Virus record (IMG/VR): IMGVR_UViG_3300021960_006627
Span: 15,804-79,803 of that record
Strand: one strand, 5' to 3'
From: a virus
DNA: 64,000 bases
Positions 2,176-27,512 of this stretch are shown here, piece by piece. The translations under genes were made by a program, and so were the position numbers. The notes below the pieces were generated by a model that saw only the letters and a program-made list of their open reading frames with translations, had not been told where the DNA came from and ran no database searches. Numbering within the stretch: position 1 is the stretch's first letter; each line of letters begins with the position of its first letter.

Positions 2176-3223
2176 TGTATTTTATGTTAGCAGGGGAGCG
2201 GTAGATCAAGCGGCTTGGGAAAGTTTCAAGCAGCGTGTTCCCAATGCTCAGAAGGCAGAACACTGCGATACATTTGAAAAGGTAGCAAACAAATCACTCA
2301 CAAAACACTTCTGGGCAGTGTGGGATAACATAATCCTGGAGGATAGTTTTGAGTTTGACTATCGCATACCAGAGTGGGATGAAAAATATATCCACGTGTT
2401 CCGCAATGGTGCATACCATGATGGCATCTGCATATTTCCCAAGCGTGCAAGAATATTACAGAGAGAATGGGACTATCGTTTCTTTACCAACAAGAAGGAA
2501 ATGGATATTACTGCAAGCCAACCAGTTCCATATGATGTTGCTTTCATATCCTATCATGAAGAAAACGCAGAAACAAATTTTAATAAACTGCTTGAAAAAG
2601 CACCGCATGCGAAATGGACAAGAGATGTCAAGGGCATACACCAAGCACACATAGAAGCAGCAAGGCGTGCAACCACGGACATGTTCTACATAGTTGATGC
2701 GGATGCTGACGTGTTGGAAGATTTTAACTTTGACATGCAGATACCCTACTATGATTTTAATGCGAGAAAGAGCGTGTATGTTTGGCGCAGCCGTAATCCA
2801 ATAACGGATTTGGAATATGGATACGGTGGAGTAAAACTGTTTCCAAGAGAAGCAACGCTGAACATGGATACAAACACTCCGGACATGACCACGAGCCTTT
2901 CTGACAGTTTCCGTGCAATGGAACAAGTAAGTAACATAACAGCATTTAACACGGATGCATTCAGCACTTGGAAGAGCGCATTCAGAGAGTGTTGCAAGTT
3001 GGCAAGCAGAACCATACGGGGACAGAACGATGATGAAACGGATCAAAGACTTAGCAAGTGGTGTTCGGACTATGGGCGTGACAGACCTTTTGGCGACCAT
3101 GCGATCAATGGCGCCCGTGCTGGCAGGACTTATGGTGTGGCTAACAGTGCTAATCATGATGCTCTTAGGTTAATAAATGATTTTGATTGGTTAAAGGAAC
3201 AGTTTGATGCAGGACAAGGATAG
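2168..3223 (+). CDS. GT-A-like glycosyltransferase with a degenerate duplicated N-terminal domain
   Basis: MYDVFYVS and YDVAFISY repeats; FYIVDADA DxD; YGYGGVKLF; TWKSAFRE. Confidence 0.6.
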   Translation: MYDVFYVSRGAVDQAAWESFKQRVPNAQKAEHCDTFEKVANKSLTKHFWAVWDNIILEDSFEFDYRIPEWDEKYIHVFRNGAYHDGICIFPKRARILQREWDYRFFTNKKEMDITASQPVPYDVAFISYHEENAETNFNKLLEKAPHAKWTRDVKGIHQAHIEAARRATTDMFYIVDADADVLEDFNFDMQIPYYDFNARKSVYVWRSRNPITDLEYGYGGVKLFPREATLNMDTNTPDMTTSLSDSFRAMEQVSNITAFNTDAFSTWKSAFRECCKLASRTIRGQNDDETDQRLSKWCSDYGRDRPFGDHAINGARAGRTYGVANSANHDALRLINDFDWLKEQFDAGQG

Positions 3224-4568
3224 AATACAAAGTTTTGAGCCTATCATGGACGAGATATCGCCCACCTTCTGCATGGCCAAGTGGCACCATACCACAATAT
3301 ATCTGCAGACGGGAGAAACGCACAGTTGCTATCATCCCGCACCACACAAGATTCCACTGGAAGGATTGGAAGAGAATCCAAGCCAACTGCATAACACTCC
3401 ACAGAAGAAAGCGGAGCGACAGCAGATGATCAATGGCGAAAAGCCAAGCGGTTGCCAATACTGCTGGAACATTGAATGCATGGGCAAGGATTACATAAGC
3501 GATAGGAAGGAAAGAAATGCGAGTATCCATACTGAAGAAAGATTTGCTGCAATTAAGGCAGACCCTATGGCTGATGTTAATCCGCAGTATGTAGAAATTT
3601 CATTTGGTAATGAGTGTAACTTCAAGTGCGGTTACTGCCATCCCAAGCACAGCAGCACATATCACAAGGAGATTAGGGATCACGGTCCATACACCATGGT
3701 CAAGAATCATCGCAACGACATTGACTGGTTCAAGATACACAAGGAAGAGGACAATCCATACGTGAAAGCGTTTTGGAAGTGGTGGCCTGAACTGCGTAAG
3801 ACGCTTACAATTTTACGCATCACGGGAGGCGAGCCTCTGCTACAGCAGAGCACGTGGCGCATGTTTGATGAGTTGGAAAAGAATCCAATGCCCAACCTTG
3901 AACTAAACATCAATTCAAACTTTGGTGTCAAGCACATACTGATAGAACGATTTGCTGACAAGGTTAATAGTTTAGTGGAGAAAGGTTGCATCAAGGACTT
4001 CAAGGTATTCACCAGCATGGACACCTGGGGCGAACAGGCGGAATACATCCGCACTGGATTGGATTTGGAGTTATGGGAAAAGAACTTTGACACATACATG
4101 ACCAAGACCAATCATCCACTAACGTTCATGGTCACATTCAACATACTAACCGTTACCAACTTTCACAAATTGTTGGAGAAGTTCCTATACTGGCGCAAGA
4201 AGTATAACGGTAATGAACAAACCAAGTGGCAGCGCATACGCTTTGATACACCCTACCTAAAGGAGCCACTACAGTATGACATGAACATACTGCCCAAGGA
4301 ATACTTCATGCCCTACATGGAAAAGCATTTGCAGTTCATTAAGGACAACATGGATGATATGGATAGGCACAAGTTCAGCGAACTTGAATATGAAAAGTTT
4401 CGCCGCGTAGTTGATTACATGCGAACAACAAATTACTCTGCTGAGAAACTCGCAGAAGGTCACAAGGATTTTTTTAATTGGTTTGCAGAATACGACCGCA
4501 GACGCGGTCTTGACTTTGTCAAGACGTTTCCTGAACTGGAAGAATTTTATTATGACTGCGCCAAGTAA
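3207..4568 (+). CDS. radical SAM protein with N-terminal twitch/SPASM-like Fe-S domain
   Basis: CNFKCGYC (CxxxCxxC), TGGEPL; N-terminal C...SCYH...GCQYCW. Confidence 0.9.
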   Translation: MQDKDRIQSFEPIMDEISPTFCMAKWHHTTIYLQTGETHSCYHPAPHKIPLEGLEENPSQLHNTPQKKAERQQMINGEKPSGCQYCWNIECMGKDYISDRKERNASIHTEERFAAIKADPMADVNPQYVEISFGNECNFKCGYCHPKHSSTYHKEIRDHGPYTMVKNHRNDIDWFKIHKEEDNPYVKAFWKWWPELRKTLTILRITGGEPLLQQSTWRMFDELEKNPMPNLELNINSNFGVKHILIERFADKVNSLVEKGCIKDFKVFTSMDTWGEQAEYIRTGLDLELWEKNFDTYMTKTNHPLTFMVTFNILTVTNFHKLLEKFLYWRKKYNGNEQTKWQRIRFDTPYLKEPLQYDMNILPKEYFMPYMEKHLQFIKDNMDDMDRHKFSELEYEKFRRVVDYMRTTNYSAEKLAEGHKDFFNWFAEYDRRRGLDFVKTFPELEEFYYDCAK

Positions 4569-5742
4569 GACTTTTTGTATTCTACCTTGGATTCATCTAT
4601 ATTCAAATCCTGATGGAACGGTATTACCTTGCTGCGTTGGAGATTGGCAACAATCTATGGGCAATGTCCAGGATGGCGATCTTGGAACAGTGTTTAACAA
4701 TGAAAGTTTCAAGACAATGCGCAAAAATATGTTGGCTGGAGAAAAATGCAGCCAATGCACTGCATGTTATCGAGATGAGGATGCCGGTAATAGCAGTTTT
4801 CGCAAGCATTCAAATGAACAGTTTTCTAAATACATAGACGATGCAATTGCCAATACCAATCCAGATGGAACCCTTGACGATTTCAAACTGAGATATCTTG
4901 ACGTAAGGTGGAGCAATATCTGTAACTTTAAGTGCCGTTCATGTGGTCCGCTTTACTCGAGCAGTTGGGCGCAGGAGCATGGCAGCGAAAAAATCTTTAC
5001 CTATGCTGGCGGAGCAAACAATGATGCACTGTATGAACAGTTTTTACCCCATTTTGATACCATAGAGGAGTTTTATTTTGCCGGAGGCGAACCATTATTA
5101 ACTGACAAACATTACGATATCCTCGAATACTTAATTAAGCATGGAAGAACAGATGTAAAATTAAGATACAACACAAACATGAGCGTTTTAAAATACAAAG
5201 ATAAGAATGTGTTAGACATGTGGAAGCAGTTTTCTAACGTATATATCGGTGCTAGTTTAGATAGTTGGGGACCGCGTGCTGAATATATTAGGCATGGAAC
5301 TATATGGAATGTTATAGAACAAAATATTAGAACTGTAAGAGAACAAGCACCACACGTTCATATGCAAACAAATACAGTTGTATCTATTCTCAATATCAAA
5401 ACACTTACTAATTTTATTGACTACATGCTGGACAGTGGTTTGGTTGATACTAAAAATTACAATCCGCATTTTTATGTAATAATGAATCCTGAATTCTTAA
5501 GCCTACAACTTCTTACAGATGAAGAAATAGCAGATACTATAAAAAAATTAACAGAGTATGCTGATAACAAAGGCGGAAATATTAAAGAAGCACTACAAAC
5601 TGTTATTAATGGCTTAAAATCGACAAAACATAATCCTGATATTATACATAAATTTAAAATTACCATTGATCATCATGATAGAAAACGTAAAGAAGACGGA
5701 CCTCTTATATTTCCTGAACTAGAGGAGTTGATGGAAGAATGA
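4552..5742 (+). CDS. radical SAM protein with N-terminal twitch/SPASM-like domain
   Basis: CNFKCRSC, AGGEPL; N-terminal FCILPW..PDGTVLPCC..GN..CTACY; start moved to MTAPSK. Confidence 0.9.
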   Translation: MTAPSKTFCILPWIHLYSNPDGTVLPCCVGDWQQSMGNVQDGDLGTVFNNESFKTMRKNMLAGEKCSQCTACYRDEDAGNSSFRKHSNEQFSKYIDDAIANTNPDGTLDDFKLRYLDVRWSNICNFKCRSCGPLYSSSWAQEHGSEKIFTYAGGANNDALYEQFLPHFDTIEEFYFAGGEPLLTDKHYDILEYLIKHGRTDVKLRYNTNMSVLKYKDKNVLDMWKQFSNVYIGASLDSWGPRAEYIRHGTIWNVIEQNIRTVREQAPHVHMQTNTVVSILNIKTLTNFIDYMLDSGLVDTKNYNPHFYVIMNPEFLSLQLLTDEEIADTIKKLTEYADNKGGNIKEALQTVINGLKSTKHNPDIIHKFKITIDHHDRKRKEDGPLIFPELEELMEE

Positions 5743-14564: not shown

Positions 14565-15485
14565 TTATGTTCCGATCGCATTACCAAAAAGATAAACATG
14601 AACCCTTGCCGCCACGTTGTATCCTCTTTGGAAAGCCATCTTAGCAACTGCTCCGGCCGTTGCTGTTTGTTCTTCTTCTCTGGCACCAACGGGCATTACC
14701 CATATTGGATAATCAACACCCTGTGCCTTAAATTGTGCGATGACACTCTCCATCTCATCCCACTGTTGCTGTTCGGAACCTACAACAAATTTTAGTTGTC
14801 CTCTGTCACTCAAACTTCTGTATTCTGCTACCACTTCAGGCTTAATCGCCTTCTTCGCAGTCTCACCTGCCACCGTCCATAGTTTAGGACTCACACTAAA
14901 GAACAATTCAACGTCCTTGGTAACTTCGTTATCCACGTGCCAAAAGTCCTTGAACTCCTGTGTAAGTGCCTGTGTGCCGTTAGTTTCAAACGTAACACTT
15001 GCTGGCATATTGTTTAATCTTTTAAATTCTGTCATGATACCGATGAACGCTTCCTGTGCGTGTTTCATCAGCGGCTCGCCGCCCGTAACACAGAAGTGCT
15101 GTCTCTGTCCTGTTACAGGATGTAAAAATAAACCTTCTGGATTACTATCCGTTCTAAGTGTGTCAATTAGTTGATGTGCAAGTTCAACTGCGGTCTTTTG
15201 CCCCATTAGGTGCTTAAACTTCTTGCTCCACGTGTAACTGCTGTCACAACCCTTATCCCATACAGGCAAATCTTCAACACGAGTTACCGTGCTTGTGTCA
15301 AACTTTTCAAACGGCAAATCATGAGTATCAGGATTAGTAGGATCAGTCTGTCCAAAACCATTGCACTGTAGATTGCACAAAAAGAAACGCACCCAAGCAG
15401 TGGGCACACCCGTGTAATGTCCTTCACCCTGTATGCTGTGAAAGATTTCGCTATAGTAATATTTCTTGTCAGTTGCTATTGTCAT
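14565..15485 (-). CDS. queE: 7-carboxy-7-deazaguanine synthase (QueE-type radical SAM)
   Basis: SEIFHSIQGEG, VRFFLCNLQC...GCDS, TGGEPL, ETNGT, SVSPKL, LKFVV, RVH. Confidence 0.85.
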   Translation of the reverse strand: MTIATDKKYYYSEIFHSIQGEGHYTGVPTAWVRFFLCNLQCNGFGQTDPTNPDTHDLPFEKFDTSTVTRVEDLPVWDKGCDSSYTWSKKFKHLMGQKTAVELAHQLIDTLRTDSNPEGLFLHPVTGQRQHFCVTGGEPLMKHAQEAFIGIMTEFKRLNNMPASVTFETNGTQALTQEFKDFWHVDNEVTKDVELFFSVSPKLWTVAGETAKKAIKPEVVAEYRSLSDRGQLKFVVGSEQQQWDEMESVIAQFKAQGVDYPIWVMPVGAREEEQTATAGAVAKMAFQRGYNVAARVHVYLFGNAIGT

Positions 15486-15695: not shown

Positions 15696-15914
15696 TTATT
15701 CGATGAAGTATTTTTTCAAGACTGACAGTTGATCATCATATTCCGCAATAATTTTCAACTCCTTCTCGATCGCTTCCAAAATGTCTGGATGCTCACCAAC
15801 GCCCGCAGCACGTTTTAGATAGACTTCAACGTTCATTGCGTGTTTGGCAATATGACCTTCCGCATGCTGTTTAATAGCGTTGATCATATTATCTCGATTG
15901 TATTCCTTAGCCAT
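15696..15914 (-). CDS. hypothetical protein
   Basis: AAGGAG SD before MAKEY. Confidence 0.7.
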   Translation of the reverse strand: MAKEYNRDNMINAIKQHAEGHIAKHAMNVEVYLKRAAGVGEHPDILEAIEKELKIIAEYDDQLSVLKKYFIE

Positions 15915-15925
15915 TGTTTTCTCCT

Positions 15926-16330
15926 TTAACACCCTTCACCATTCACAATGTCTTCTATGTCCATTTGTGATGGATCGGGTTCATTTTTTCTGTAATTGCC
16001 CTTTTCGGGTATTACGTGTCTTACTCCACCCCGAGGATCTTCCATGTCACCCTTGCGGCGTGGGATTAGATGTACGTGTGGCCACATGACTGTTTGTCCT
16101 GCTGCCTCACCGATGTTCTGCCCTAAGTTATAGGCATCACAGTATCCCCTTTGCACCCAATCGTATCCCCAGGCATATGCGGCCTTGTAACAGGCAGCAA
16201 GTTTATCCCAGGTTTCTTCCTTGGGCACAAAAAGAATGTGTCCTTCCGTTACCGGAAAACCATCCTTAAAAACGGTAAAATCTCTCGTGTCAATCACGAT
16301 GTCCGTCCAAGGTATGTCCTTAAATTCCAT
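15926..16330 (-). CDS. HIT-family nucleotide hydrolase
   Basis: DGFPVTEGHILFVPK, GEAAGQTVMWPHVHLIPR. Confidence 0.9.
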   Translation of the reverse strand: MEFKDIPWTDIVIDTRDFTVFKDGFPVTEGHILFVPKEETWDKLAACYKAAYAWGYDWVQRGYCDAYNLGQNIGEAAGQTVMWPHVHLIPRRKGDMEDPRGGVRHVIPEKGNYRKNEPDPSQMDIEDIVNGEGC

Positions 16331-16801: not shown

Positions 16802-17032
16802 CTAAAACCCCCTACCTCTGTTTATTTGATATACCTTTGGACCGGGTGTTGTAAATTCAAAACCCATCTTGTTGCCAACATAAACTCTACCATTGTATTC
16901 CATGTGAATCTTGTTTGTTGCTAACCAAATATCTAAAAATTGTTTTTCTTCAAATCTTTCAACTTCTGCTTCTGCTACCTTGTCATTGTCAGTGCAGGTT
17001 ACGGTGCAGGTTTTATCGTATTCTGTTGGCAT
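16802..17032 (-). CDS. hypothetical protein
   Basis: start MPTEY coupled to the upstream stop. Confidence 0.65.
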   Translation of the reverse strand: MPTEYDKTCTVTCTDNDKVAEAEVERFEEKQFLDIWLATNKIHMEYNGRVYVGNKMGFEFTTPGPKVYQINRGRGF

Positions 17033-17589
17033 TAATATTCTCCTACGTTTTCCCAAGGATAAACTAACCATACATCTTCCTCGGCTTTGTTTACTTCATT
17101 ACAATAGTACGAAACACCATCAAAATTACTTGCTAGATTTTCTGTTAATACTGCGAAACGTACATTGTCTCCCCAAATCTGATCCCATACAGGACTATGT
17201 GATAAACAACTGCTCTTCCAATCTTGTTTAATCCAATTAAATGTTGCACCAGTATCATTAATGTCGTCTATGATAAGAATGTTCTTGCCCATTGGCGTAT
17301 TTTTAAACTGTCCCATCTCCGGAGCAAATGATCCTTCGTTGTCATAACCGTAGGCATCCTCGGCCATCCAAGCATTGCTTTCTAAATGGCTTGTATCATC
17401 ACGTAGTGCAACCTTGAGTGCTTCACAACGAATGCCTGTCATATTACTAATAATAGTAGCAGGAACATTACCTCCACGTGTAATGCCCACGATGTAGTCT
17501 GGCTTCCAGTTATCCTTGTACATTTGTGTGACTATATTTACACACATTTTTTCTACGTCCTGCCATGTGTAATAAACTTTTTTAACCAT
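17032..17589 (-). CDS. type I purine phosphoribosyltransferase (Gpt-like)
   Basis: IVGITRGG, ILIIDDINDTGAT PRPP loop, WLVYPWE. Confidence 0.85.
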   Translation of the reverse strand: MVKKVYYTWQDVEKMCVNIVTQMYKDNWKPDYIVGITRGGNVPATIISNMTGIRCEALKVALRDDTSHLESNAWMAEDAYGYDNEGSFAPEMGQFKNTPMGKNILIIDDINDTGATFNWIKQDWKSSCLSHSPVWDQIWGDNVRFAVLTENLASNFDGVSYYCNEVNKAEEDVWLVYPWENVGEY

Positions 17590-17890
17590 TTTGCTCCCCT
17601 AGAGTAAAATCAATTTTCTTTACATTTGCCCAGAGGAAACTTCTCCAGCCCTTGGCATTAACATCATAAACAGCCAATGACGTAGGAACTTTATCTTCCT
17701 TTTTATCTTCTGTTACCTGGGTCTTGGGATGAAACTCTTTTGGTATTAGATCAAAGTTAAGAGTGGAATTCATTTTTCTTTCCTCGCCATCCTTTTTAGT
17801 AAAGGTAACAACTACTTCCTGCTTCCTTAGAAGACCCAATAACCAATCACGTCCCTCAGGCGTGTCTATTTCATTATGTGTTTCTTGCAT
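17582..17890 (-). CDS. SH3/Sm-like beta-barrel protein (WYL_2-like)
   Basis: VTFTKKDGEERKM..T...VYDVNAKGWRSF. Confidence 0.6.
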   Translation of the reverse strand: MQETHNEIDTPEGRDWLLGLLRKQEVVVTFTKKDGEERKMNSTLNFDLIPKEFHPKTQVTEDKKEDKVPTSLAVYDVNAKGWRSFLWANVKKIDFTLGEQNG

Positions 17891-18371
17891 TCAAATATTC
17901 CTCATTGTGTATCCACTTGTAACCACGGTCCATGTCTTCTGTATCGACGTATGGAAGGAATCCCCATTCCTTCTTTTTCTTGCCCATGAAGAACAGGCTC
18001 CAGCACGGAATCTCATTTCCCGCTTCATCCTTCTCCAGTTCAAGCCAGTGTAGATCATCTGCTGATCTAATGCGGAAGTGTCCAGGACCTCTCCATACTC
18101 TGGTGCTGCCTATCACGCCTCCCGTTGTTTCGTTGGTTAGTGGAATGTGTTCCCAGTATCCACCCTTTAGTATCAGTGTTGCATATCCCCAGGGATGATC
18201 GTGTAGCACGGGTTCATCACTTACCATTACCTTGTGAAGGGTAATGTTGAAAGGAAAACGATTCCTGTCCTTTAAAAAAACATAATAGCGGTCAAGATAG
18301 GGTATCTTGCCGTCTCTGTCATATATGGTTCGCTTGCGACCAATCTTATCAAGCAGTTTCAAAAACATCAA
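17874..18371 (-). CDS. cupin-like protein
   Basis: LHDHPW..LILKGGYWE...HWLEL. Confidence 0.55.
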   Translation of the reverse strand: MMFLKLLDKIGRKRTIYDRDGKIPYLDRYYVFLKDRNRFPFNITLHKVMVSDEPVLHDHPWGYATLILKGGYWEHIPLTNETTGGVIGSTRVWRGPGHFRIRSADDLHWLELEKDEAGNEIPCWSLFFMGKKKKEWGFLPYVDTEDMDRGYKWIHNEEYLNARNT

Positions 18372-18783
18372 TGCCTCTTTCTTTTAGATAGCGTTTCAGT
18401 TCCTTGTCCGTGGGCTGAACGCCATAGTTTTGCTTGAAAAATATCTCGTAACTATCACTGCCATACTTTCCAATGCCATATAACATTGTAGCATCATTTC
18501 CGTCCCATGTCAAGTAGTCTTGTGACATTTGGCGCAGAGCACGTTCTCGCCTGTTATAAAAGCCCAATTCTCGTATGATTTCTATCACCTGTTCTGGTGT
18601 GCTTTTTAGGAACTTTCGTGGAGTATTCCATTTGGATAGGAATTTTGGAAGCACTCGCTTTACCTGCACTCGATCAGTTTGGTTGAGCATGATCACTCCA
18701 ACCATGTGCTGCCAGGCGCCATCAATCTGTTCCTGCACCATTAGATCATCACGCAAGGGTTTTCCAGGGCTGAACTTTCGCAT
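18349..18783 (-). CDS. HhH-GPD DNA glycosylase, MBD4-like
   Basis: IMLNQT, LGFYNRR, LYGIGKYGSDSYEIF, PTDKEL. Confidence 0.8.
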   Translation of the reverse strand: MRKFSPGKPLRDDLMVQEQIDGAWQHMVGVIMLNQTDRVQVKRVLPKFLSKWNTPRKFLKSTPEQVIEIIRELGFYNRRERALRQMSQDYLTWDGNDATMLYGIGKYGSDSYEIFFKQNYGVQPTDKELKRYLKERGIDVFETA

Positions 18784-19344: not shown

Positions 19345-20031
19345 TTATCTTGGTGCAAACTCTTGTTGCAATTTAATATTGTCCATGAACTCTTTCTTAG
19401 TTCCTGGATCATCCTTGAAACTGCCTTCCAACACGGTTGTCTGCGTTAGACTGCTGTGTGCCATGATGCCTCTATTCTCACAGCAACCATGCGTTGCTTG
19501 AATATACACACCAATGTTCTTTGAGTTCGTTGCTTTCTTAATTTCACGTGCAATGTCATTGCACAGTTCTTCCTGTAAGGTTCCACGCCTTGCACACCAC
19601 TGTGCGATACGTGTGTATTTAGAAAGTCCAATTACCTTGCCATTTGGAATAATACCAATGTATGCCACGCCTGTTACTGGTTGATGATGATGCGAACAAA
19701 CACTCTTTAGTTCGCTTCTTACAACCAACATGCCCGTGTAAGCATCTTCACCTTCGTTTGGAAATGCTGTTGCCGTAGGAATCTTATCATAACGACCCTG
19801 CATTAGTTCATTGTAATACATTTTAGCAAGGCGTTTAGCAGTACCGTGGCTGTTAGGATCAGTTGCCCTATCAATGATAAGACTGTCCAAAACACCCTCA
19901 AACTTTTCCGCGGCTTCCTCGATTAGTTTTTCTTTTTCGCCAGCATAGATGAATTCACTAATATTATCGCCGGCCCAGTAACGCTTGTTAGCGTCCTTAA
20001 TTCTGCGTGTTACTTCTTCGTATTTTTTCAA
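19345..20031 (-). CDS. folE: GTP cyclohydrolase I
   Basis: SVCSHHHQP, VIGLSKYTR, LQEEL, ATHGCCENRG. Confidence 0.95.
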   Translation of the reverse strand: MKKYEEVTRRIKDANKRYWAGDNISEFIYAGEKEKLIEEAAEKFEGVLDSLIIDRATDPNSHGTAKRLAKMYYNELMQGRYDKIPTATAFPNEGEDAYTGMLVVRSELKSVCSHHHQPVTGVAYIGIIPNGKVIGLSKYTRIAQWCARRGTLQEELCNDIAREIKKATNSKNIGVYIQATHGCCENRGIMAHSSLTQTTVLEGSFKDDPGTKKEFMDNIKLQQEFAPR

Positions 20032-20071
20032 TTTGTGTCTCCGATGTTAAGGCAGTGGATTGCCATTGTTG

Positions 20072-21112
20072 TTATTTTAAAACCTTTAGTAGATTTCCGC
20101 AACCGAAATAATCTCCATTCAGTTTATACACCTGTTTATTTAGGCTTACGAGATAATCCTTGTAATTTTCCATATAATCAACAATCTTGTCCATTACTTG
20201 TTTCTTGTGCTTCTTGTAAGATTCCATTGATTCAGTCCATTCTGATGGATACTTGAATCTATCAAGTGCCATCTCACTGTAACTCAATCTGTCCGGAACC
20301 ATGGGCAATGCTCCTACCAGAGCACCCTCATACCAACTAATGCCCAGCGTTTCTTGTAGGTTCGCACTAAACACAAGTTTCGCCTCTCCCAGCAGGTTGT
20401 GGTATTCGTTCTTTGTTAGTGGCCTTTCCTGGCACACCACAAAGTTGTATTGTGGTAAGGATTCTTTTAGATCCTGGAATATGGGCAGTTGCTTTTCTGG
20501 AGCAATTCTGTGCGGAAATAGCACAGTATTAGTTTTCTTCATGCCCTTGTACATTGTGAGTGTTTGATCCATGTATTCAAATGGCCATCCCGTTCTTACT
20601 ACTTTGCTTCTGTCCAATTCTGGAAATGATTCAAAGAACATGTCGATGTGGAATTCACTTGCGAAGAAATTATGATCAAAGCATTCATACATGCTTCTTT
20701 CTGCATTTCTTACCCAAGGTTTATCACCTATAAGCCTGCCAAGGAAATCAGCAGGATCGTAACTACCAGCGTGCCAAAGACCACCGATTCTAATGTTAAT
20801 GCCCAGTAACTCAGCCATGTATTTAAGTTGGATAACAGTCGGGTTCCAAGCGTCCGTATATAGGAAATAATCTCCATCCTTCACTTCTCCTTTGCAGAAT
20901 GCTTCCGCGATCTGCATCAATTGGTTTGATTTATAAACATTGGTTCCACCAAAGTTGAGGAACGCCCCGGGCGTTGTTGCCTGAGGCGTATCCCCACCAT
21001 TTAATACTCTAACGGTATGGCCGTGAGCCTTCAGCAGTTTGGGAAATTCAGTCTTCCACTGTTTTGTGTAGCGTGTTTCTACTGCTTCGAGATCAACCAA
21101 CCATACATTCAT
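20072..21112 (-). CDS. GT-B (GT4-like) glycosyltransferase in the deazaguanine cluster
   Basis: FPHRIAPEK, SANLQETLGISWYEG (ExxGxxxxE), PDRLSYSE. Confidence 0.8.
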   Translation of the reverse strand: MNVWLVDLEAVETRYTKQWKTEFPKLLKAHGHTVRVLNGGDTPQATTPGAFLNFGGTNVYKSNQLMQIAEAFCKGEVKDGDYFLYTDAWNPTVIQLKYMAELLGINIRIGGLWHAGSYDPADFLGRLIGDKPWVRNAERSMYECFDHNFFASEFHIDMFFESFPELDRSKVVRTGWPFEYMDQTLTMYKGMKKTNTVLFPHRIAPEKQLPIFQDLKESLPQYNFVVCQERPLTKNEYHNLLGEAKLVFSANLQETLGISWYEGALVGALPMVPDRLSYSEMALDRFKYPSEWTESMESYKKHKKQVMDKIVDYMENYKDYLVSLNKQVYKLNGDYFGCGNLLKVLK

Positions 21113-21315
21113 TAGTTCTTCCTTTTAAATTTTTTATTCTTTCGATTGCGGTTACTGTACATTCTCCACGCATAACTTGCGTTGTTGTAGAGATCCTTTT
21201 CATTGAAAGGAAGTAAGTTACCGCGGTTGTCAAGATTGAAACGACAGAAGTCCTTAAAACGCTCAAGATCGTTAAAAACTTTATCGTAGGCTTCACGATT
21301 GAATTGAATAGCCAT
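21112..21315 (-). CDS. hypothetical protein
   Basis: coupled ORF with SD. Confidence 0.6.
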   Translation of the reverse strand: MAIQFNREAYDKVFNDLERFKDFCRFNLDNRGNLLPFNEKDLYNNASYAWRMYSNRNRKNKKFKRKN

Positions 21316-21330
21316 TTTATTTCACCTTTA

Positions 21331-21771
21331 TTACTTTGCATACTCAATGTGGGCACCGTTTTCTCCATCTTCACTTACGTCAATATGGACTTCACGGCCT
21401 GGGTGTTTGGCAATGATCTGTTCATACAAATCATCTGCCATCATTTCACAACTCTTATAATCTAACTCAAGTGTCTTCTCCTGATACAGTTTTTCTAACC
21501 AACGTTTAAATTGAATAAACTCAATATCTCTGTCGTTGTGTGTTACAGTGATACCGACCTTAAAATGGAATATGTGTCTGTGGGGATAACCCAAGAACGA
21601 AACATCATATTCATCACCTGTTGCAAGACTGGGATCATCCAGTGCCGCAGGATACTTGTGGATACCTTCCTTGCGGAACGTAACCCAAATCATTCTCTTT
21701 GCCGTATTCATGATACGTCTGTGATTGTCTTCTGCCATTGCTTCTTTCATCATTTCATCAGTTATGCTCAT
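21331..21771 (-). CDS. T-fold QueD-like protein (DpdL-type)
   Basis: GIH, LGYPHRHIF (LxxxHRHxF in place of QueD CxxxHGH), SCEMMA, VSEDGENG. Confidence 0.75.
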   Translation of the reverse strand: MSITDEMMKEAMAEDNHRRIMNTAKRMIWVTFRKEGIHKYPAALDDPSLATGDEYDVSFLGYPHRHIFHFKVGITVTHNDRDIEFIQFKRWLEKLYQEKTLELDYKSCEMMADDLYEQIIAKHPGREVHIDVSEDGENGAHIEYAK

Positions 21772-21789
21772 AGTATAGCGCCTTTTCTG

Positions 21790-22320
21790 TTAGTTGTCAT
21801 CCACAATCTTATCGTTTTTGTATTCATTCCATTCCGTAAATTTGGAACGGTCCATCAAGTCATGTAGGCTGTGGCACCATACACCTGGATTGGTTGCTTC
21901 AAAACCCTTGTCATCAATTTTGAGCATTGTGTTATAGTTCCAAAGTTTTATGTAAGGTATTGGAACCCTAATCTGTGGAATGAATCTATCATACTCAACC
22001 AATGGTCCTTCGAGAAACTCCCCGGCAGCATTGATTGGAATATCCAAACTGCAAAACAAATCATCCTTGAGAAATGGTTCAATCATCTTTTCCCATTCCT
22101 CATAATAGTCCGCACTGTGATTCTGTGAAGCAGGATCGAAACTGTGATTGGCACCAAAGAAGATGTGTTTAACATCCTGTGCATGATCCCTAATGATGCT
22201 CGGATCATTTAGACCCGTAACGAATAGAGTTTGCATTCCGTGTGCAGGAGTTTTTTCAACTTCTACACCTGTAAAAAATCCTACGTCACTTGCACTACCA
22301 GTTTCATAATCACGTTGCAT
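21790..22320 (-). CDS. hypothetical protein of the deazaguanine cluster
   Basis: 176-aa ORF between the TGT-like and T-fold genes. Confidence 0.75.
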   Translation of the reverse strand: MQRDYETGSASDVGFFTGVEVEKTPAHGMQTLFVTGLNDPSIIRDHAQDVKHIFFGANHSFDPASQNHSADYYEEWEKMIEPFLKDDLFCSLDIPINAAGEFLEGPLVEYDRFIPQIRVPIPYIKLWNYNTMLKIDDKGFEATNPGVWCHSLHDLMDRSKFTEWNEYKNDKIVDDN

Positions 22321-22496
22321 TATGCGTGTTCCTTCTCCAGTTTCTCGATTTCATCCTTCATCTTGAGTCGATCTCGTTTCATTTCGGAAATTTCCTCATC
22401 AGTAAATTTACCGGTCTTCTCCATAGTATCGATCTTCTTATTTAGGTATTGGTGTGTTTCCCTTAACCATTTCAGCCTTTGTGTATAGTCACCCAT
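22320..22496 (-). CDS. DUF465/YdcH-like coiled-coil protein
   Basis: H..L.KKI...EMKRDRLKMKDEI; GGAGG SD. Confidence 0.55.
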   Translation of the reverse strand: MGDYTQRLKWLRETHQYLNKKIDTMEKTGKFTDEEISEMKRDRLKMKDEIEKLEKEHA

Positions 22497-22497
22497 A

Positions 22498-24045
22498 TCA
22501 CGCCTCCTGTAGTTGTTTCTCCAATTTGTCCAACTCGCCATCTTCTCGATCATCTGACCAAGGCGTTTTCTCTTCTCCATCGTTGTCTACCTCCACGAAC
22601 ATCCTGTTAAATTCGTTAGTAACACCACCACGCAGCCTTGCACCTTCGAGATCCTTAAGGAAACTGTCTGCTAGTTTAATCATAGCAAATGCTTCATCCT
22701 TGGTCTTGCACTCAAACAGTTCTTCTACGAATCTATCAAAGTATAGGATGTTGCGTGGCACCCAATCACTGTATTCATCACTCTTGTCTGCTTCTTTAAC
22801 TTTTCTCCAACGTCTCCAGTCTGGACGTTCTTTAGCCAATTCAATATCAGTTAAGTTATTAGCACGTTGAACAGCAACAATGTGTTGATAAACATTGTGT
22901 GCCATCATAAGTGCATAACCAAAACTATCCCACGATGTTTTTCCTTCCTTACCGATCTTGTTAAGCATTCCTGGCGCATAGTGGCATATGTCCGCGATGC
23001 TAAGGCGTCTGCCAATTTCGCTTTCGAACGGGAAAGGAATATCATGCCGCTTGGCAAGACTCTTATTATCAGGGGCCTTGTCCATAATAACTGACCAACG
23101 CTTACTTGTGTGTTGGGAGTTAGTATATACCAACCCGTGTGCTGTAGCAATAAAAGGACTTGCGCAGTCGAAACTGATTGTAAAGTTTTCATTGATGTGT
23201 TTGCGAACCTGTCTTTGAATTGAAGTTAAGTAGCATGACCAATCAAGTTGTGCCGTGCCTAGGAAGTGCATCCAGTCCTTGCCTTCCAGCATGCCATCAA
23301 ACTTCATAGTCATTAAGCGTCTTAGTGTAATTGGCATCTTGCACATGTTAGCACCACCCATAGCCCAACCTTCGCAGGCCTTGTCCTTCCATATCTTAGG
23401 ATCGGAGAATTCTTTAACACCTTCATACCACTTCTCAGCGGTATCCCAGTCTGAACCCTGTAATACGTTTAGGAATTTAGTAGCACCAAGTCTGCGCTCT
23501 AGCCAATACTTGTTGTTAAAACGTGTCTTGTCCAAGCAGTCCTCAAAACTCTTTAGTCCTGTCTTAGGCGAATGAATGTGGTCACATGCCCAAGTCGGAA
23601 CGTCAAGTAGCATTGACCAATCTGCTGTTAGTTCAAGCCAATTAAGAATATCATCTCTAACCTTATTAGCAGCCGCACCTTCAAAGTTTAGCCAATCAAA
23701 CTTAAGAACACCCTTACCAACCTGATATCCACCCGAGTCACCAAGTATCATGGTCTTTCCTCTATCTCGACTCTGTACCATTGCATCCTGATCCATTGTC
23801 TTATCAAGATTTAATTGTGCGTGTCCTGCTGAATACAATCCATACTTGTATGTAAAGTATCCTTCTTCTTCATTTAAAAAGTTCATACCTTCGATGCCGC
23901 GATCAAAACCCTGCGGAATACGTTCTTTAGGAACAAACTCTTCCTTACGTTGTTTAGCAATATAAGTGCTGAAGAAAGAACTAATAGCAGGCAAATACAC
24001 TGCGTAGTCTTTCTGTAATGGTGTTAGATTGACTGGTTTTTTCAT
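22498..24045 (-). CDS. TGT-fold guanine transglycosylase (DpdA-like)
   Basis: GDSGGYQ, MLLD, VLQG, GWAMGG, HFLG, SFDCASP (catalytic Asp), AHN. Confidence 0.8.
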   Translation of the reverse strand: MKKPVNLTPLQKDYAVYLPAISSFFSTYIAKQRKEEFVPKERIPQGFDRGIEGMNFLNEEEGYFTYKYGLYSAGHAQLNLDKTMDQDAMVQSRDRGKTMILGDSGGYQVGKGVLKFDWLNFEGAAANKVRDDILNWLELTADWSMLLDVPTWACDHIHSPKTGLKSFEDCLDKTRFNNKYWLERRLGATKFLNVLQGSDWDTAEKWYEGVKEFSDPKIWKDKACEGWAMGGANMCKMPITLRRLMTMKFDGMLEGKDWMHFLGTAQLDWSCYLTSIQRQVRKHINENFTISFDCASPFIATAHGLVYTNSQHTSKRWSVIMDKAPDNKSLAKRHDIPFPFESEIGRRLSIADICHYAPGMLNKIGKEGKTSWDSFGYALMMAHNVYQHIVAVQRANNLTDIELAKERPDWRRWRKVKEADKSDEYSDWVPRNILYFDRFVEELFECKTKDEAFAMIKLADSFLKDLEGARLRGGVTNEFNRMFVEVDNDGEEKTPWSDDREDGELDKLEKQLQEA

Positions 24046-24053
24046 AACTTTAT

Positions 24054-24791
24054 TTAGGCCGCCTGTGCTGGAATGATATATTTGTATTTTGCCAAACCGC
24101 TATCTAATTCAATCTGAATGGCCCCTTCGTTTGAAATACTCATCTTGGTGTTATTCACATCAGCAATTTTTAGAATTGCAAGGATGCTCGCAACAGGCCA
24201 AGTCCAACCACGATCCAACTTACCTTCAACATTAGTAGCAAAAATAAATTCACCGCCATGCGTTGAAGCATCACCAAAGATAAACTTCAAATTACCATCT
24301 TCAGTCTTTGCTAAGAATGTTGGATGTTCTGGATTTGCACCAGCCTGGAAATTAAAACGCTGAACGCCTGCCAGTGTAGGCACAACTTCCACGTCCCAAT
24401 TAACTCCACGGAACTTTACCGTTTTCATCTTTTCGTTAATGATTTCCATGTTCATAAAACGATAATCGTTCTTGAAGTCACCATCCTTGTTTTCAAAGTG
24501 AATGCCTACAGGAATAGTTGCACCATTGCGTTCCGCACTTGTGATACTAATCTTTGCATCATCCTTGTATTCACTACCATCTAGCAAATACTTTAGTTTT
24601 TGTAGTTGTGGCATGCCAAATACACCTAGCATATCCGGATAAGGATTGTTTGTATCCGCCTCCATAATTACTGATCTATCATCAGCCATAGAAAACATTG
24701 CAGTCTTATCTCCCTCACCTGTAACCTTTACAGTTGTAAGAAAGCCTAAGTTCTGTGTATGTCCTACGATATCTTGTAAAATGTCTTTCAT
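24054..24791 (-). CDS. DNA polymerase sliding clamp (gp45-like)
   Basis: 245-aa beta-rich protein next to polB, C-terminal YKYIIPA. Confidence 0.6.
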   Translation of the reverse strand: MKDILQDIVGHTQNLGFLTTVKVTGEGDKTAMFSMADDRSVIMEADTNNPYPDMLGVFGMPQLQKLKYLLDGSEYKDDAKISITSAERNGATIPVGIHFENKDGDFKNDYRFMNMEIINEKMKTVKFRGVNWDVEVVPTLAGVQRFNFQAGANPEHPTFLAKTEDGNLKFIFGDASTHGGEFIFATNVEGKLDRGWTWPVASILAILKIADVNNTKMSISNEGAIQIELDSGLAKYKYIIPAQAA

Positions 24792-24848: not shown

Positions 24849-27512
24849 TTACTCAAAATCAAATAATTTATTAAAGTTATTGTCATTTCGAGTTTGACTA
24901 ATGTCCCATTCCAATACACCAATTAAGTTTTTAAGTTTTTCATCGATAACTGTATTTTCCATAGTAGCATCATCGAATGGTAAATCCTTAAACCATTCCG
25001 GCAGTCTTAGTTCATCTACCGGATATGCCACACTTGTGTAACCCATTGGGTTATCCTTAACCTTACAGACAATGACCTTTGCACCGTCTGTGATATTCAC
25101 TGAATACTTGTCACCGTTCATGCGTTTAAGTGTGTTCCAATTAATACTTGCTCGAACGTGTCCAGGCATATTTGCCTTTCCTGCTTTCTTTTCTTTGGCT
25201 TCATACTCAGTAATCTTGTTTGCACGTTTAGGCGAACCTTTTTCCCAACCAGGACGTGCTTTGAATTCTGTTCTAAATTCTGTAATGTAATCCAATACAT
25301 CTTCCTTTTCTTTTCCTGACAGAACCATTTCCAATACGTTACTTAGGAAGTCTTGGATGACAACAGGAGTATCCGAACGCTTGAGATCGAGACCCATCGC
25401 CTTAATTTTACCTGGCTTGCCCTCTGTGTCTGTTCTAAAACCTTCAATGTCATAGTAGAGAACTGCATATCTTTTCTTTGTAATAAACAGTCCTTTGCTC
25501 GCAACAATTTCTCTAGCAGCCGCAATCACTTCCGAACGCTTCTTGGGACAGTGAAATGCTTGGCTCATAAATTTTCCAAATGTGGCATTTGTAGTTTCGC
25601 CGATAGTGTCATACAGTTCTACAACGCTATCCTTTGTCCAAGGAATAGTTCCTGCGTCAATATCTTTCTTAAGTGTGCTATATGCACTAAAGTATGTAGA
25701 ATCTGTATCACCATAAACAATTGCCTTACCTGTATGATCATAGTCGCCTGTTACGATCTCATTGATTTTAGCAGCCATGTGTTTGGTAATGCTTCGTCCT
25801 GTAAGTGTAACACTCTGACCAATCCTGTTGTCGAAAAATCTACAGCCTGGATTTAGGATTGCACCATACAAACTGTTGAGCAAAATCTTCTTGACCAACT
25901 GTCGCTTTGCCCAGTATTCTTCTTCAATCTTGTTGCCTGCGTTCTGGCTTTCCTTCTGCTTGGCCTGCATCTCCTTACGTTCCTTGTACCAACGTGCGAG
26001 TAGGCCGGGTATCACGCCTTCCTTTTCATAAGTGAAGATTGTGCCATTGGCACTCAGCATCCAAGGTTGGTTGCTTTCATAGATTAAATCATATATCTGT
26101 GCGGCACTTAATGTATCGTTGTCACCGTTCTCCCAATCAATTGTGATCTGTCTGCCTATTTCCTTTTCCATTACAGAACTGTATTCAACACTACCAAACA
26201 TACCTTCCCATGCACTTGCAAAGGATTTGCCCTTGGCCATTTGTCCATCAATGTGTGCTTTGGTACCATCCTGCCGTAGTTGCCCAACAACAGTTTCAGG
26301 CCCCATGTTCAATGCTCTAATAACACTAGGATACAGTGAATTCAAGTCAACCGATCCAATCCACTCGTGTATGCCCTTCTTAGGATACGCAACATAAGCA
26401 CCTGCTGCCGGCTCTGAGCCAGGCTCACGTTTCACTCTGTTCGGAACAATCATTCCACGTCTGTGTGCTTCGTTGATAATGCCCTGTTCTGTAACAGCAA
26501 CAGCACCCATTGTGGTTTGTATAAGCACAGTGTTTTCGTGTGCAATAGTGTTTGCAAGGTCAATAAACTTTAGTTTCTTGTCCAGTTTATCAAGCAGTGC
26601 AGTATCCTGCCTGTTGTATTCAATGAACGTTCTAAAGTCATTGTTGTATAGTGCATCAAGGCTTCCTTCATACACGGTTTTCTTTTCGCCTACTTCTAGT
26701 TCGCCAATAGCATCTAGTCGATATGTGTGTCTTTCTTCATAGTTGTATTTTCTGTAAAGTTCCAAACTATCCACATGCACACGACCAACTAGATCATATG
26801 TTGTAGATTCCTTACCAAACTTTTCATATGTTCTTTTTTTAGGATATTGATCCCACAAGCACAAACGTCTTGTATCTTCTTTGCTTAAAACTTTAATAAT
26901 ACGGTTAACAGTGTAGGGCATATCATAACCTTCACTGTTCCAGCCACTTAGCACATCCGCATCCTGTATCAGGTCAAGAAACGCATCAAGCATATCCGCT
27001 TCGTTTTCATAAAGTATTGTGTTTGGAATACCTTCAATTGCCTTTTGTGCTTCTGCCATCGATAGTGTCTTAGGTGGAATAGCAAGACAGATTAGTTCTT
27101 CCATCCACTGCAAATGCACCGCAATGGAAGTGATTGGCATGAATGCATCCTCAGGAGAAGCATAGCCACGCTCCGGATCGAAATCAACCTCAATATCCCA
27201 AAATGCAACATTCAGTTTTGGTGCATCAATGTTTAGATAGTTGTCTTCAAGACAACGATAGATAGGATTAATATCGCTTTCGTATAATTTCTTGTTGGAA
27301 TGGATCGCAAGTTCCTTGCGAAGTTCTTTAATATTCTTTGCACTTACTCGCTGTAGTGCTTCACCATAGATTGATTGGTGCTTTCCTCTTGGATCTTTAT
27401 AATAGAATATGTGTCGGGGTTGATACTCTGTGAAACTTCTCTTGCCGTTCTTTCTTTCGACAATTCGAATAATGTCTTCGTTGCGATCATAGAACGCATC
27501 TACGTAACTCAT
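24849..27512 (-). CDS. family B DNA polymerase
   Basis: DIEVD ExoI, GWNSEGYD, YNRQD, DLNSLYPS, KILLNSLYG, YGDTDS, KKRY. Confidence 0.97.
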   Translation of the reverse strand: MSYVDAFYDRNEDIIRIVERKNGKRSFTEYQPRHIFYYKDPRGKHQSIYGEALQRVSAKNIKELRKELAIHSNKKLYESDINPIYRCLEDNYLNIDAPKLNVAFWDIEVDFDPERGYASPEDAFMPITSIAVHLQWMEELICLAIPPKTLSMAEAQKAIEGIPNTILYENEADMLDAFLDLIQDADVLSGWNSEGYDMPYTVNRIIKVLSKEDTRRLCLWDQYPKKRTYEKFGKESTTYDLVGRVHVDSLELYRKYNYEERHTYRLDAIGELEVGEKKTVYEGSLDALYNNDFRTFIEYNRQDTALLDKLDKKLKFIDLANTIAHENTVLIQTTMGAVAVTEQGIINEAHRRGMIVPNRVKREPGSEPAAGAYVAYPKKGIHEWIGSVDLNSLYPSVIRALNMGPETVVGQLRQDGTKAHIDGQMAKGKSFASAWEGMFGSVEYSSVMEKEIGRQITIDWENGDNDTLSAAQIYDLIYESNQPWMLSANGTIFTYEKEGVIPGLLARWYKERKEMQAKQKESQNAGNKIEEEYWAKRQLVKKILLNSLYGAILNPGCRFFDNRIGQSVTLTGRSITKHMAAKINEIVTGDYDHTGKAIVYGDTDSTYFSAYSTLKKDIDAGTIPWTKDSVVELYDTIGETTNATFGKFMSQAFHCPKKRSEVIAAAREIVASKGLFITKKRYAVLYYDIEGFRTDTEGKPGKIKAMGLDLKRSDTPVVIQDFLSNVLEMVLSGKEKEDVLDYITEFRTEFKARPGWEKGSPKRANKITEYEAKEKKAGKANMPGHVRASINWNTLKRMNGDKYSVNITDGAKVIVCKVKDNPMGYTSVAYPVDELRLPEWFKDLPFDDATMENTVIDEKLKNLIGVLEWDISQTRNDNNFNKLFDFE

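Follow-up and report, generated by a model that had tools for sequence, protein, structure and literature searches.

Eight derivatives of 7-deazaguanine are known from viral DNA, none of which bears a sugar (PMC10516641). In the described pathway, FolE, QueD and QueE together generate 7-carboxy-7-deazaguanine (CDG), from which DpdL is proposed to form 7-deazaguanine, with enzymes of the DpdA family inserting the base after replication. For example, in the DNA of the Cellulophaga phage phiST, deoxyguanosine (dG) is wholly replaced by 2'-deoxy-7-deazaguanosine (dDG); the action of DpdL as a CDG decarboxylase is a proposal from the literature for which heterologous tests failed (Cui et al. 2023, PMC10516641). 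In bacteria, the Dpd system (dpdA-K) places 2'-deoxy-7-cyano-7-deazaguanosine (dPreQ0) or 2'-deoxy-7-amido-7-deazaguanosine (dADG) in DNA by means of a DpdA-type transglycosylase carried in a mobile chromosomal island. A sugar-bearing DNA base is found in phage T4, in which alpha- and beta-glucosyltransferases act on hydroxymethylcytosine (hmC). The subject of this analysis is a run of genes within a 64,000 nucleotide stretch of viral DNA (the window; positions 15,804 to 79,803 of IMG/VR record IMGVR_UViG_3300021960_006627), in which a glycosyltransferase (GT) is embedded in a 7-deazaguanine DNA-modification module. We lean towards the reading that this GT attaches a sugar to 7-deazaguanine, either in DNA or before the base is inserted.

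The source contig, 79.8 kb in length and estimated to be ~22% complete, is a fragment of a marine jumbo phage genome. The run lies on the minus strand, as do all features given below unless stated otherwise, in the order family B DNA polymerase, sliding clamp, 515-residue protein, DUF465 protein, 176-residue protein, DpdL, 67-residue open reading frame (ORF), GT and FolE, with an HhH-GPD protein, a 165-residue protein, a phosphoribosyltransferase (PRTase), a HIT-family protein and a QueE-like radical SAM enzyme further downstream. Re-reading the ORFs bore out the gene order and coordinates given in an earlier note on this stretch, which had also placed queE beyond folE. FolE, a GTP cyclohydrolase I (19345-20031), matches Pfam GTP_cyclohydroI at 8.5e-41, above the cut-off, as well as phrog_2197. 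The QueE-like enzyme, which represents CDG synthase (14565-15485), is 37% identical to the 7-carboxy-7-deazaguanine synthase of phage PA5oct (2e-59); it also matches E. coli QueE (6nhl) at 1.1e-5 and the NCBIfam QueE models at ~1e-11, below their cut-offs. The protein previously noted as having a T-fold is DpdL, a 146-residue paralogue of QueD (21331-21771): its LGYPHRHIF is an exact instance of LxxxHRHxF (L60, H64, R65, H66 and F68), invariant in the family alignment, and the tblastn search matched it to phiST DpdL CGPG_00067 (2e-11), with 34% identity across 82% of its length. It is this signature that separates DpdL from QueD, which is characterised by CxxxHGH (Cui et al. 2023, PMC10516641).

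Neither QueC nor a canonical QueD is present on the contig. A PTPS gene is found elsewhere on three of five larger related contigs, none of which has a QueC above the cut-off, and the queuosine genes QueC, QueF, QueA and QueG were detected neither on the contig nor on its larger relatives. Owing to the lack of QueC, the end point of the pathway appears to be CDG or 7-deazaguanine, as in phiST. With FolE, QueE, DpdL and a DpdA-like enzyme of tRNA-guanine transglycosylase (TGT) fold, and no QueC, these genes make up a DpdL-type module for the modification of DNA with 7-deazaguanine, in agreement with the earlier note. Its resemblance to phiST extends to FolE, QueE, the QueD paralogue with LxxxHRHxF, a transglycosylase of the TGT superfamily, the absence of QueC and the position beside polymerase genes. 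By contrast, phiST has no homologue of the GT, its DpdA3 is only 259 residues long and has no significant profile similarity to the 515-residue enzyme, and the marine module adds the conserved 176-residue protein, the PRTase and the HIT protein.

Four of the module's proteins, including the GT and the 515-residue enzyme, have no match by sequence in Pfam, NCBIfam or the PDB, and these two were resolved by structure prediction alone. The AlphaFold2 (AF2) model of the 346-residue GT (20072-21112), built with 64 diverse relatives, has a pLDDT of 96.6 and consists over its full length of two Rossmann-like domains with a cleft between them, the GT-B fold, so the embedded glycosyltransferase of the earlier note is real. 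Structures of families GT4 and GT5 align to it with VIA Z-scores of 20-26 and root-mean-square deviations of 2.7-3.9 A over 290-320 residues, and with Foldseek E-values of 1e-11 to 1e-8. The individual Z-scores are 25.7 for sucrose-phosphate synthase, 25.1 for BshA, 22.6 for glycogen synthase, 22.3 for PimB', 20.3 for the tetrahydrobiopterin glucosyltransferase 5zer (another such enzyme, 9v0l, is also matched by Foldseek) and 18.8 for T4 alpha-glucosyltransferase. In the C-terminal EX7E motif, E254-TLGISWY-E262, the second glutamate is invariant across the family and the first is at least 90% conserved, as are R202 and K207 of FPHRIAPEK, the R-x4-K pair that binds the nucleoside diphosphate (NDP)-sugar. 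This motif and two others picked out previously, QETLGISWYEG and VPDRLSYSE, are present in the GT and near-invariant across the family, and the family profile aligns the EX7E and R-K region to the GT4 structures 8xsg (3e-5) and 2f9f. Weak matches to Glycos_transf_1 (PF00534) occur in 52 of the 64 relatives, the best at 5.7e-9, the GT itself having no Pfam match at E<=1. On its modelled structure and motifs, the GT is predicted to be a retaining, GT4-like enzyme of active appearance.

The GT family is highly abundant: it accounts for 8000 of 8000 scored candidates in a word-indexed search, an exhaustive one returned 1230 representatives of clusters formed at 50% identity, and it occurs both in cultured phages and in chromosomal islands of bacteria. 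Its tree has two main groups. Mean identity within the family is just 33%, yet many residues of the N-terminal, acceptor-side domain are conserved. A prediction of the GT in complex with DpdL scored 0.00, which is evidence neither for nor against an interaction.

The 515-residue protein (22498-24045) matches no Pfam, NCBIfam or PDB entry by sequence, including when searched with a profile of 23 sequences, and the sequence models for TGT (PF01702) and DpdA (PF23859) in Pfam do not detect it. Its AF2 model (pLDDT 79.5), however, is a (beta/alpha)8 barrel of the TGT type, for which the best 50 Foldseek matches are all bacterial tRNA-guanine transglycosylases (E ~1e-8). VIA Z-scores were 18.0 for QTRT2, 17.8 for ArcTGT, 17.0 for TGT, 15.5 for DpdA (7ui4) and 13.9 for Cap10, with generic TIM barrels reaching no more than 11.8, below all five matches from the TGT superfamily. 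Across the 23 family members, which are 40-89% identical, GDSGG(Y/F)Q (containing D103), FDCA (containing D293) and GWAMGG are invariant. We take GDSGGYQ and FDCA to be the two catalytic-aspartate motifs of TGT, with D103 and D293 corresponding to D102 and D280 of the Zymomonas mobilis enzyme. The protein is thereby modelled as a DpdA-like member of the TGT superfamily. As hhalign matched its profile only weakly to ACP17 DpdA (E 0.006) and phiST DpdA3 (E 0.003), the probability being low in each case, it is termed DpdA-like without assignment to any of DpdA1-4.

The association between the GT and these genes was followed in two sets of viral loci: 80 close IMG/VR loci, in which the GT is 66-94% identical, and 80 distant loci belonging to the other group of the tree (group A), from non-marine samples, in which it is ~25-35% identical. 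In the close loci the order is essentially fixed as clamp, DpdA-like gene, 176-residue protein, DpdL, the 67-residue ORF where present, and GT, followed by the 165-residue protein, PRTase, HIT protein, FolE and QueE; the recurrence of the same block in 80 loci indicates that the arrangement is not due to chance. The DpdA-like gene is found in 74 of the 80, the 176-residue protein in 76, a T-fold protein in 79 and the DpdL signature in 78. Among the distant loci, the DpdL signature lies within 10 kb of the GT in 73/80, canonical QueD in 47/80, FolE in 66/80 and QueE in 65/80. Hence DpdL is within 10 kb of the GT in 151 of 160 viral loci. The synteny of the GT with dpdA in relatives, on which the earlier note had staked its proposal, is therefore retained.

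Two further features were observed in the distant loci. An enzyme of the radical SAM type, ~450 residues long and additional to QueE, is encoded directly upstream of the GT (L119:8601-9992, L096:8562-10001 and L145:2122-3657), one instance having a SPASM domain; such an enzyme could tailor either the base or the sugar. Downstream of the GT lies a gene for a protein with the pattern FxDSGAPS...SVDS, the ESM Atlas neighbours of which are named queuine tRNA-ribosyltransferase or DpdA. It has no PDB-profile match and no significant hhalign match, and the Pfam DpdA model detects one of 25 members (E 0.014), such that its candidacy as a TGT or DpdA enzyme is a lead only.

Cultured phages exhibit the same association under a variety of gene orders. 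In PA5oct, a DpdA-like gene whose product is 42% identical to the 515-residue enzyme lies directly upstream of the GT, which is followed by a DpdL-like gene and QueE. The Acidovorax phage ACP17 has the order QueD, FolE, 176-residue homologue, 424-residue TGT-like protein, GT, DpdL and QueE, so that its GT falls exactly between the TGT-like gene and dpdL (L003:7718-10401). Similarly, the Sinorhizobium phage Phosso carries the 176-residue homologue, DpdL, GT, FolE and QueE, and Xanthomonas phage X1 has FolE, GT, an annotated TGT directly downstream of the GT, DpdL and QueE. There are also phages with DpdL and without the GT, namely phiST, RHph_I1_18 and Ahp1. The GT is consequently an optional component, and the module is best described as a new variant among the deazaguanine modification systems already known.

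A different context is found in Xanthomonas phage PhiXhv-12 (L090:1475-9902), where a GT of 25% identity is situated among genes for a GATase-QueC fusion, a PIG-L deacetylase, a GFO/IDH/MocA oxidoreductase and a GNAT protein. The Gat-QueC gene is mis-annotated as glutamine-fructose-6-phosphate aminotransferase (GlmS) and has a GNAT fusion upstream of it; the PIG-L deacetylase, GT homologue and oxidoreductase come after it, an apparent sugar-tailoring set on a deazaguanine gene that suggests GlcNAc to GlcN chemistry. Pairs of a GT4 enzyme with a PIG-L deacetylase are known in BshA/BshB and MshA/MshB, and the present family resembles these in that BshA is one of the top two structural matches of the window's GT and in that the PhiXhv-12 homologue is likewise paired with a PIG-L protein. 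Those pairs, however, produce low-molecular-weight thiols, whereas the partners of the GT are Gat-QueC, the DpdA-like enzyme and DpdL.

In bacterial genomes, 43 GT loci were examined, in 33 of which a DpdA-like gene is adjacent and in 25 of which DpdL is present. Considered together, the neighbour counts from viral and bacterial loci identify the transglycosylase as the gene most constantly associated with the GT, DpdL being second. Beside the GT in 16 of 24 clustered isolate-type loci is a transporter of the Vut_1/YhhQ type, that is, of the type transporting queuosine precursors; isolate genera with an island and this transporter are Pelagibacterium, Devosia, Ochrobactrum, Methylobacterium, Sulfitobacter, Shimia and Magnetospirillum. 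These alphaproteobacterial islands also hold a MASE1 histidine kinase with a LuxR regulator, a protein of 545-864 residues and a small integrase or resolvase, and sometimes DpdL and PTPS (L181:3042-9035, L192:4517-10584 and L196:4240-12673), and are without FolE, QueE or dpdB-K. In common with the bacterial Dpd system, they place a transglycosylase of the DpdA type on a mobile chromosomal island, 7ui4 aligning to the 515-residue model with the Z-score of 15.5 given above; they differ from it in having the GT, YhhQ-like transporter, MASE1 kinase and LuxR regulator and small recombinase, and in lacking dpdB-K. They may represent an undescribed deazaguanine DNA-modification system, or one of defence or self-modification.

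The presence of the GT inside the deazaguanine gene set of many unrelated phages and some bacteria suggests a sugar-bearing DNA base that has yet to be described. In such a pathway, FolE and QueE, along with a QueD from another part of the genome, would convert GTP to CDG, DpdL would convert CDG to 7-deazaguanine, and the DpdA-like enzyme would replace guanine in DNA by this deazapurine. The GT would constitute an integral but optional fourth step, in which a sugar is transferred from an NDP-sugar to the deazaguanine, either in DNA after insertion, as T4 glucosyltransferases modify hmC, or ahead of insertion by DpdA, with the free base as acceptor. The probable benefit would be evasion of host enzymes that recognise plain deazaguanine. 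Host glycosylases have been found to attack and destroy phage DNA containing dDG (bioRxiv 10.1101/2025.10.29.685425), which provides a selective reason for further decoration. The T4 enzymes offer a parallel in being phage proteins of GT-B fold, T4 AGT (1y6f) aligning to the GT over its full length, and in the proposed logic of a sugar added after replication to a non-canonical base as protection against host nucleases. They nevertheless have no sequence relationship to the GT, generic GT4 enzymes are structurally closer to it, and the acceptor proposed here is a deazapurine without a hydroxymethyl handle.

Several observations weigh against a sugar on the deazaguanine. The base has no hydroxyl and hence offers no ordinary O-acceptor, so a C-glycosidic, N-glycosidic or, on CDG, ester or acyl linkage would be needed; we know of no natural DNA base for which C-, N- or acyl-glycoside chemistry of this kind has been described. 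Nor is the GT any closer to known DNA glucosyltransferases than to GT4 enzymes acting on small molecules, as the respective Z-scores of T4 AGT and BshA illustrate. DpdL systems work without it, as in the three phages lacking a GT, and in a few viral loci (L114, L156, L162, L166 and L167) no deazaguanine genes were detected within 10 kb of it. Finally, the PRTase and HIT protein are conserved in the module of the marine clade, leaving room there for a branch in which part of the pathway runs at the level of the nucleotide. In the biosynthesis of deazapurine antibiotics, it is a PRTase that forms the nucleotide.

A more extended proposal, advanced tentatively and rated somewhat short of even odds, is that many phages and alphaproteobacterial mobile islands write a sugar-bearing 7-deazaguanine into their DNA through the pairing of a DpdA-like enzyme with a GT4 enzyme, DpdL being used where the base is plain 7-deazaguanine, and the sugar being attached through a C- or N-glycosidic bond or, on CDG, as an acyl glycoside. 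No description of a glycosylated deazaguanine in DNA, or of this GT, was found in the searchable literature. Were such a base to exist, it would represent a new class among natural DNA bases, the purine counterpart to the glucosylated hmC of T4, and would probably change how sensitive the DNA is to Dag glycosylases, END nucleases and restriction enzymes. It would also account for two published observations: the DNA of PA5oct resists cleavage at five G-containing restriction sites through a modified G that is unidentified (PMC12191111), and expression of ACP17 dpdL and dpdA in Escherichia coli yielded no dDG (PMC10516641). As PA5oct is already known to carry this modified G, the idea is directly testable in existing strains.

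Of the alternatives, the one that best withstands the evidence, though we regard it as unlikely, is that the GT acts on a soluble intermediate or by-product, such as CDG, a pterin or, through the PRTase, a deazapurine nucleotide, and that the sugar protects, sequesters or activates a precursor without ever entering DNA. The structures nearest to the GT are enzymes that act on small molecules, BshA and sucrose-phosphate synthase, and tetrahydrobiopterin glucosyltransferases are also matched; FolE and a PTPS-type enzyme make pterins, and the conserved PRTase and HIT protein of the marine module are in keeping with soluble chemistry. However, the most constant neighbours of the GT are DpdL and an enzyme resembling DNA or RNA transglycosylases, rather than FolE, and the bacterial islands retain the GT, the DpdA-like gene and the transporter in the absence of FolE and QueE. 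Moreover, a glycosylated free base could itself be the substrate of DpdA, in which case this alternative merges with the proposal of a sugar on the deazaguanine.

It is less likely still that the GT modifies an unrelated acceptor, be it another DNA base, a glycan of the virion or host, or a protein, and merely travels with a block of replication and nucleotide metabolism genes. A fold by itself names no acceptor, and the few loci without detectable deazaguanine genes in the vicinity would fit such a role. By contrast, the linkage persists without replication genes in the alphaproteobacterial islands and under the other gene orders of X1, ACP17 and PhiXhv-12, as well as in the 151 viral loci in which DpdL is nearby.

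The earlier note also likened the GT to QTMAN (GTDC1), the animal mannosyltransferase of tRNA queuosine, and saw in it a pointer to a prokaryotic origin of that enzyme. The two are alike in being GT4-class enzymes tied to a 7-deazaguanine derivative; they differ in that the acceptor of QTMAN is the cyclopentenediol hydroxyl of queuosine in tRNA, which is beyond the reach of the phage pathway. The motifs compared are the general R-x4-K and EX7E donor-binding motifs of GT4 enzymes, and hence do not support a reading specific to QTMAN. Its QTMAN_N domain (PF12038, formerly DUF3524) is absent from the GT at E<=1, does not figure in the top 25, by number of matches, of the 42 Pfam families detected in the 64 relatives, and, when five bacterial genomes carrying the GT were searched in all six frames, produced a lone chance-level match (E 0.8). 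In the structure comparisons, Foldseek having been suggested as a means of separating GTDC1 from generic GT4 enzymes, the nearest structures were the generic retaining GT4/GT5 enzymes BshA, sucrose-phosphate synthase and glycogen synthase; no QTMAN entry is among the Foldseek or VIA matches, which is uninformative given that the library may contain no QTMAN structure. The supposed prokaryotic origin is unsupported, and no sign of specific common descent was obtained. That the module acts instead on RNA, with the TGT-fold enzyme putting deazaguanine into tRNA for the GT to glycosylate in the manner of QTMAN, is highly improbable: the best structural matches of the 515-residue enzyme are indeed tRNA TGTs (Z 17-18), slightly above DNA DpdA, and QTMAN shares the GT4 class, but QTMAN_N and the queuosine genes were not found, a DpdL-type module gives dDG in phiST DNA, and PA5oct, with the same DpdA-like/GT pair, has restriction-resistant DNA.

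The remaining genes of the run vary in their constancy. Its upstream boundary is the family B DNA polymerase (24849-27512; Pfam DNA_pol_B 1.9e-33, exonuclease domain 6e-17, phrog_262 2.9e-198), which shares 44-51% identity with its counterparts in jumbo phages, among them Sinorhizobium Phosso (51%), Agrobacterium Atu_ph07, Vibrio 2.275.O and the Rak2-like group; a megablast search of the region against cultured phages gave no match. The adjacent sliding-clamp-like protein (24054-24791) matches phrog_12062 at 8e-35, is syntenic with a Phosso gene annotated as a sliding clamp and is present in 65 of the 80 related loci. Between the DpdA-like gene and DpdL are two small genes. The first (22320-22580) encodes a DUF465 protein, as had been recognised previously (Pfam DUF465 5.5e-11), which is in just 8/80 loci and probably lies outside the core of the module. 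The second (21790-22320) encodes the conserved 176-residue protein, which in the close loci that have it is always located between the DpdA-like gene and DpdL, and which has homologues in Phosso and ACP17; it has no match in Pfam, NCBIfam or the PDB profiles, and its ESM Atlas neighbours are low-feature and at chance level. The 67-residue ORF preceding the GT (21112-21315) has a basic tail and a stop codon overlapping the GT start, and is kept in 60/80 loci, with no family match in Pfam, PHROG or NCBIfam.

Downstream of FolE, the HhH-GPD protein (18349-18783; Pfam HhH-GPD 2.1e-10) resembles a DNA glycosylase and is a small accessory gene found at varying positions in 25 of the 80 loci. The conserved 165-residue protein (17874-18371), which has no Pfam or NCBIfam match, is in 51, mostly directly downstream of the GT. 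The PRTase (17032-17589; Pfam Pribosyltran 8.1e-10) falls within the module in 70/80 loci, as counted by plain tblastn, and the HIT-family protein (15926-16330; Pfam HIT 7.7e-10) in 53/80. Scans for promoters and terminators did not, overall, rise above the shuffled background. A perfect sigma-70 consensus, TTGACA-17-TATAAT, is present at window positions 15521-15493 on the minus strand, 8 nt upstream of the queE start, and is the sole 12/12 match in the 15 kb scanned. Elsewhere in the window, a hidden Markov model derived from QueE picked up two adjacent radical-SAM-like ORFs on the plus strand, at 3195-4565 and 4411-5739.

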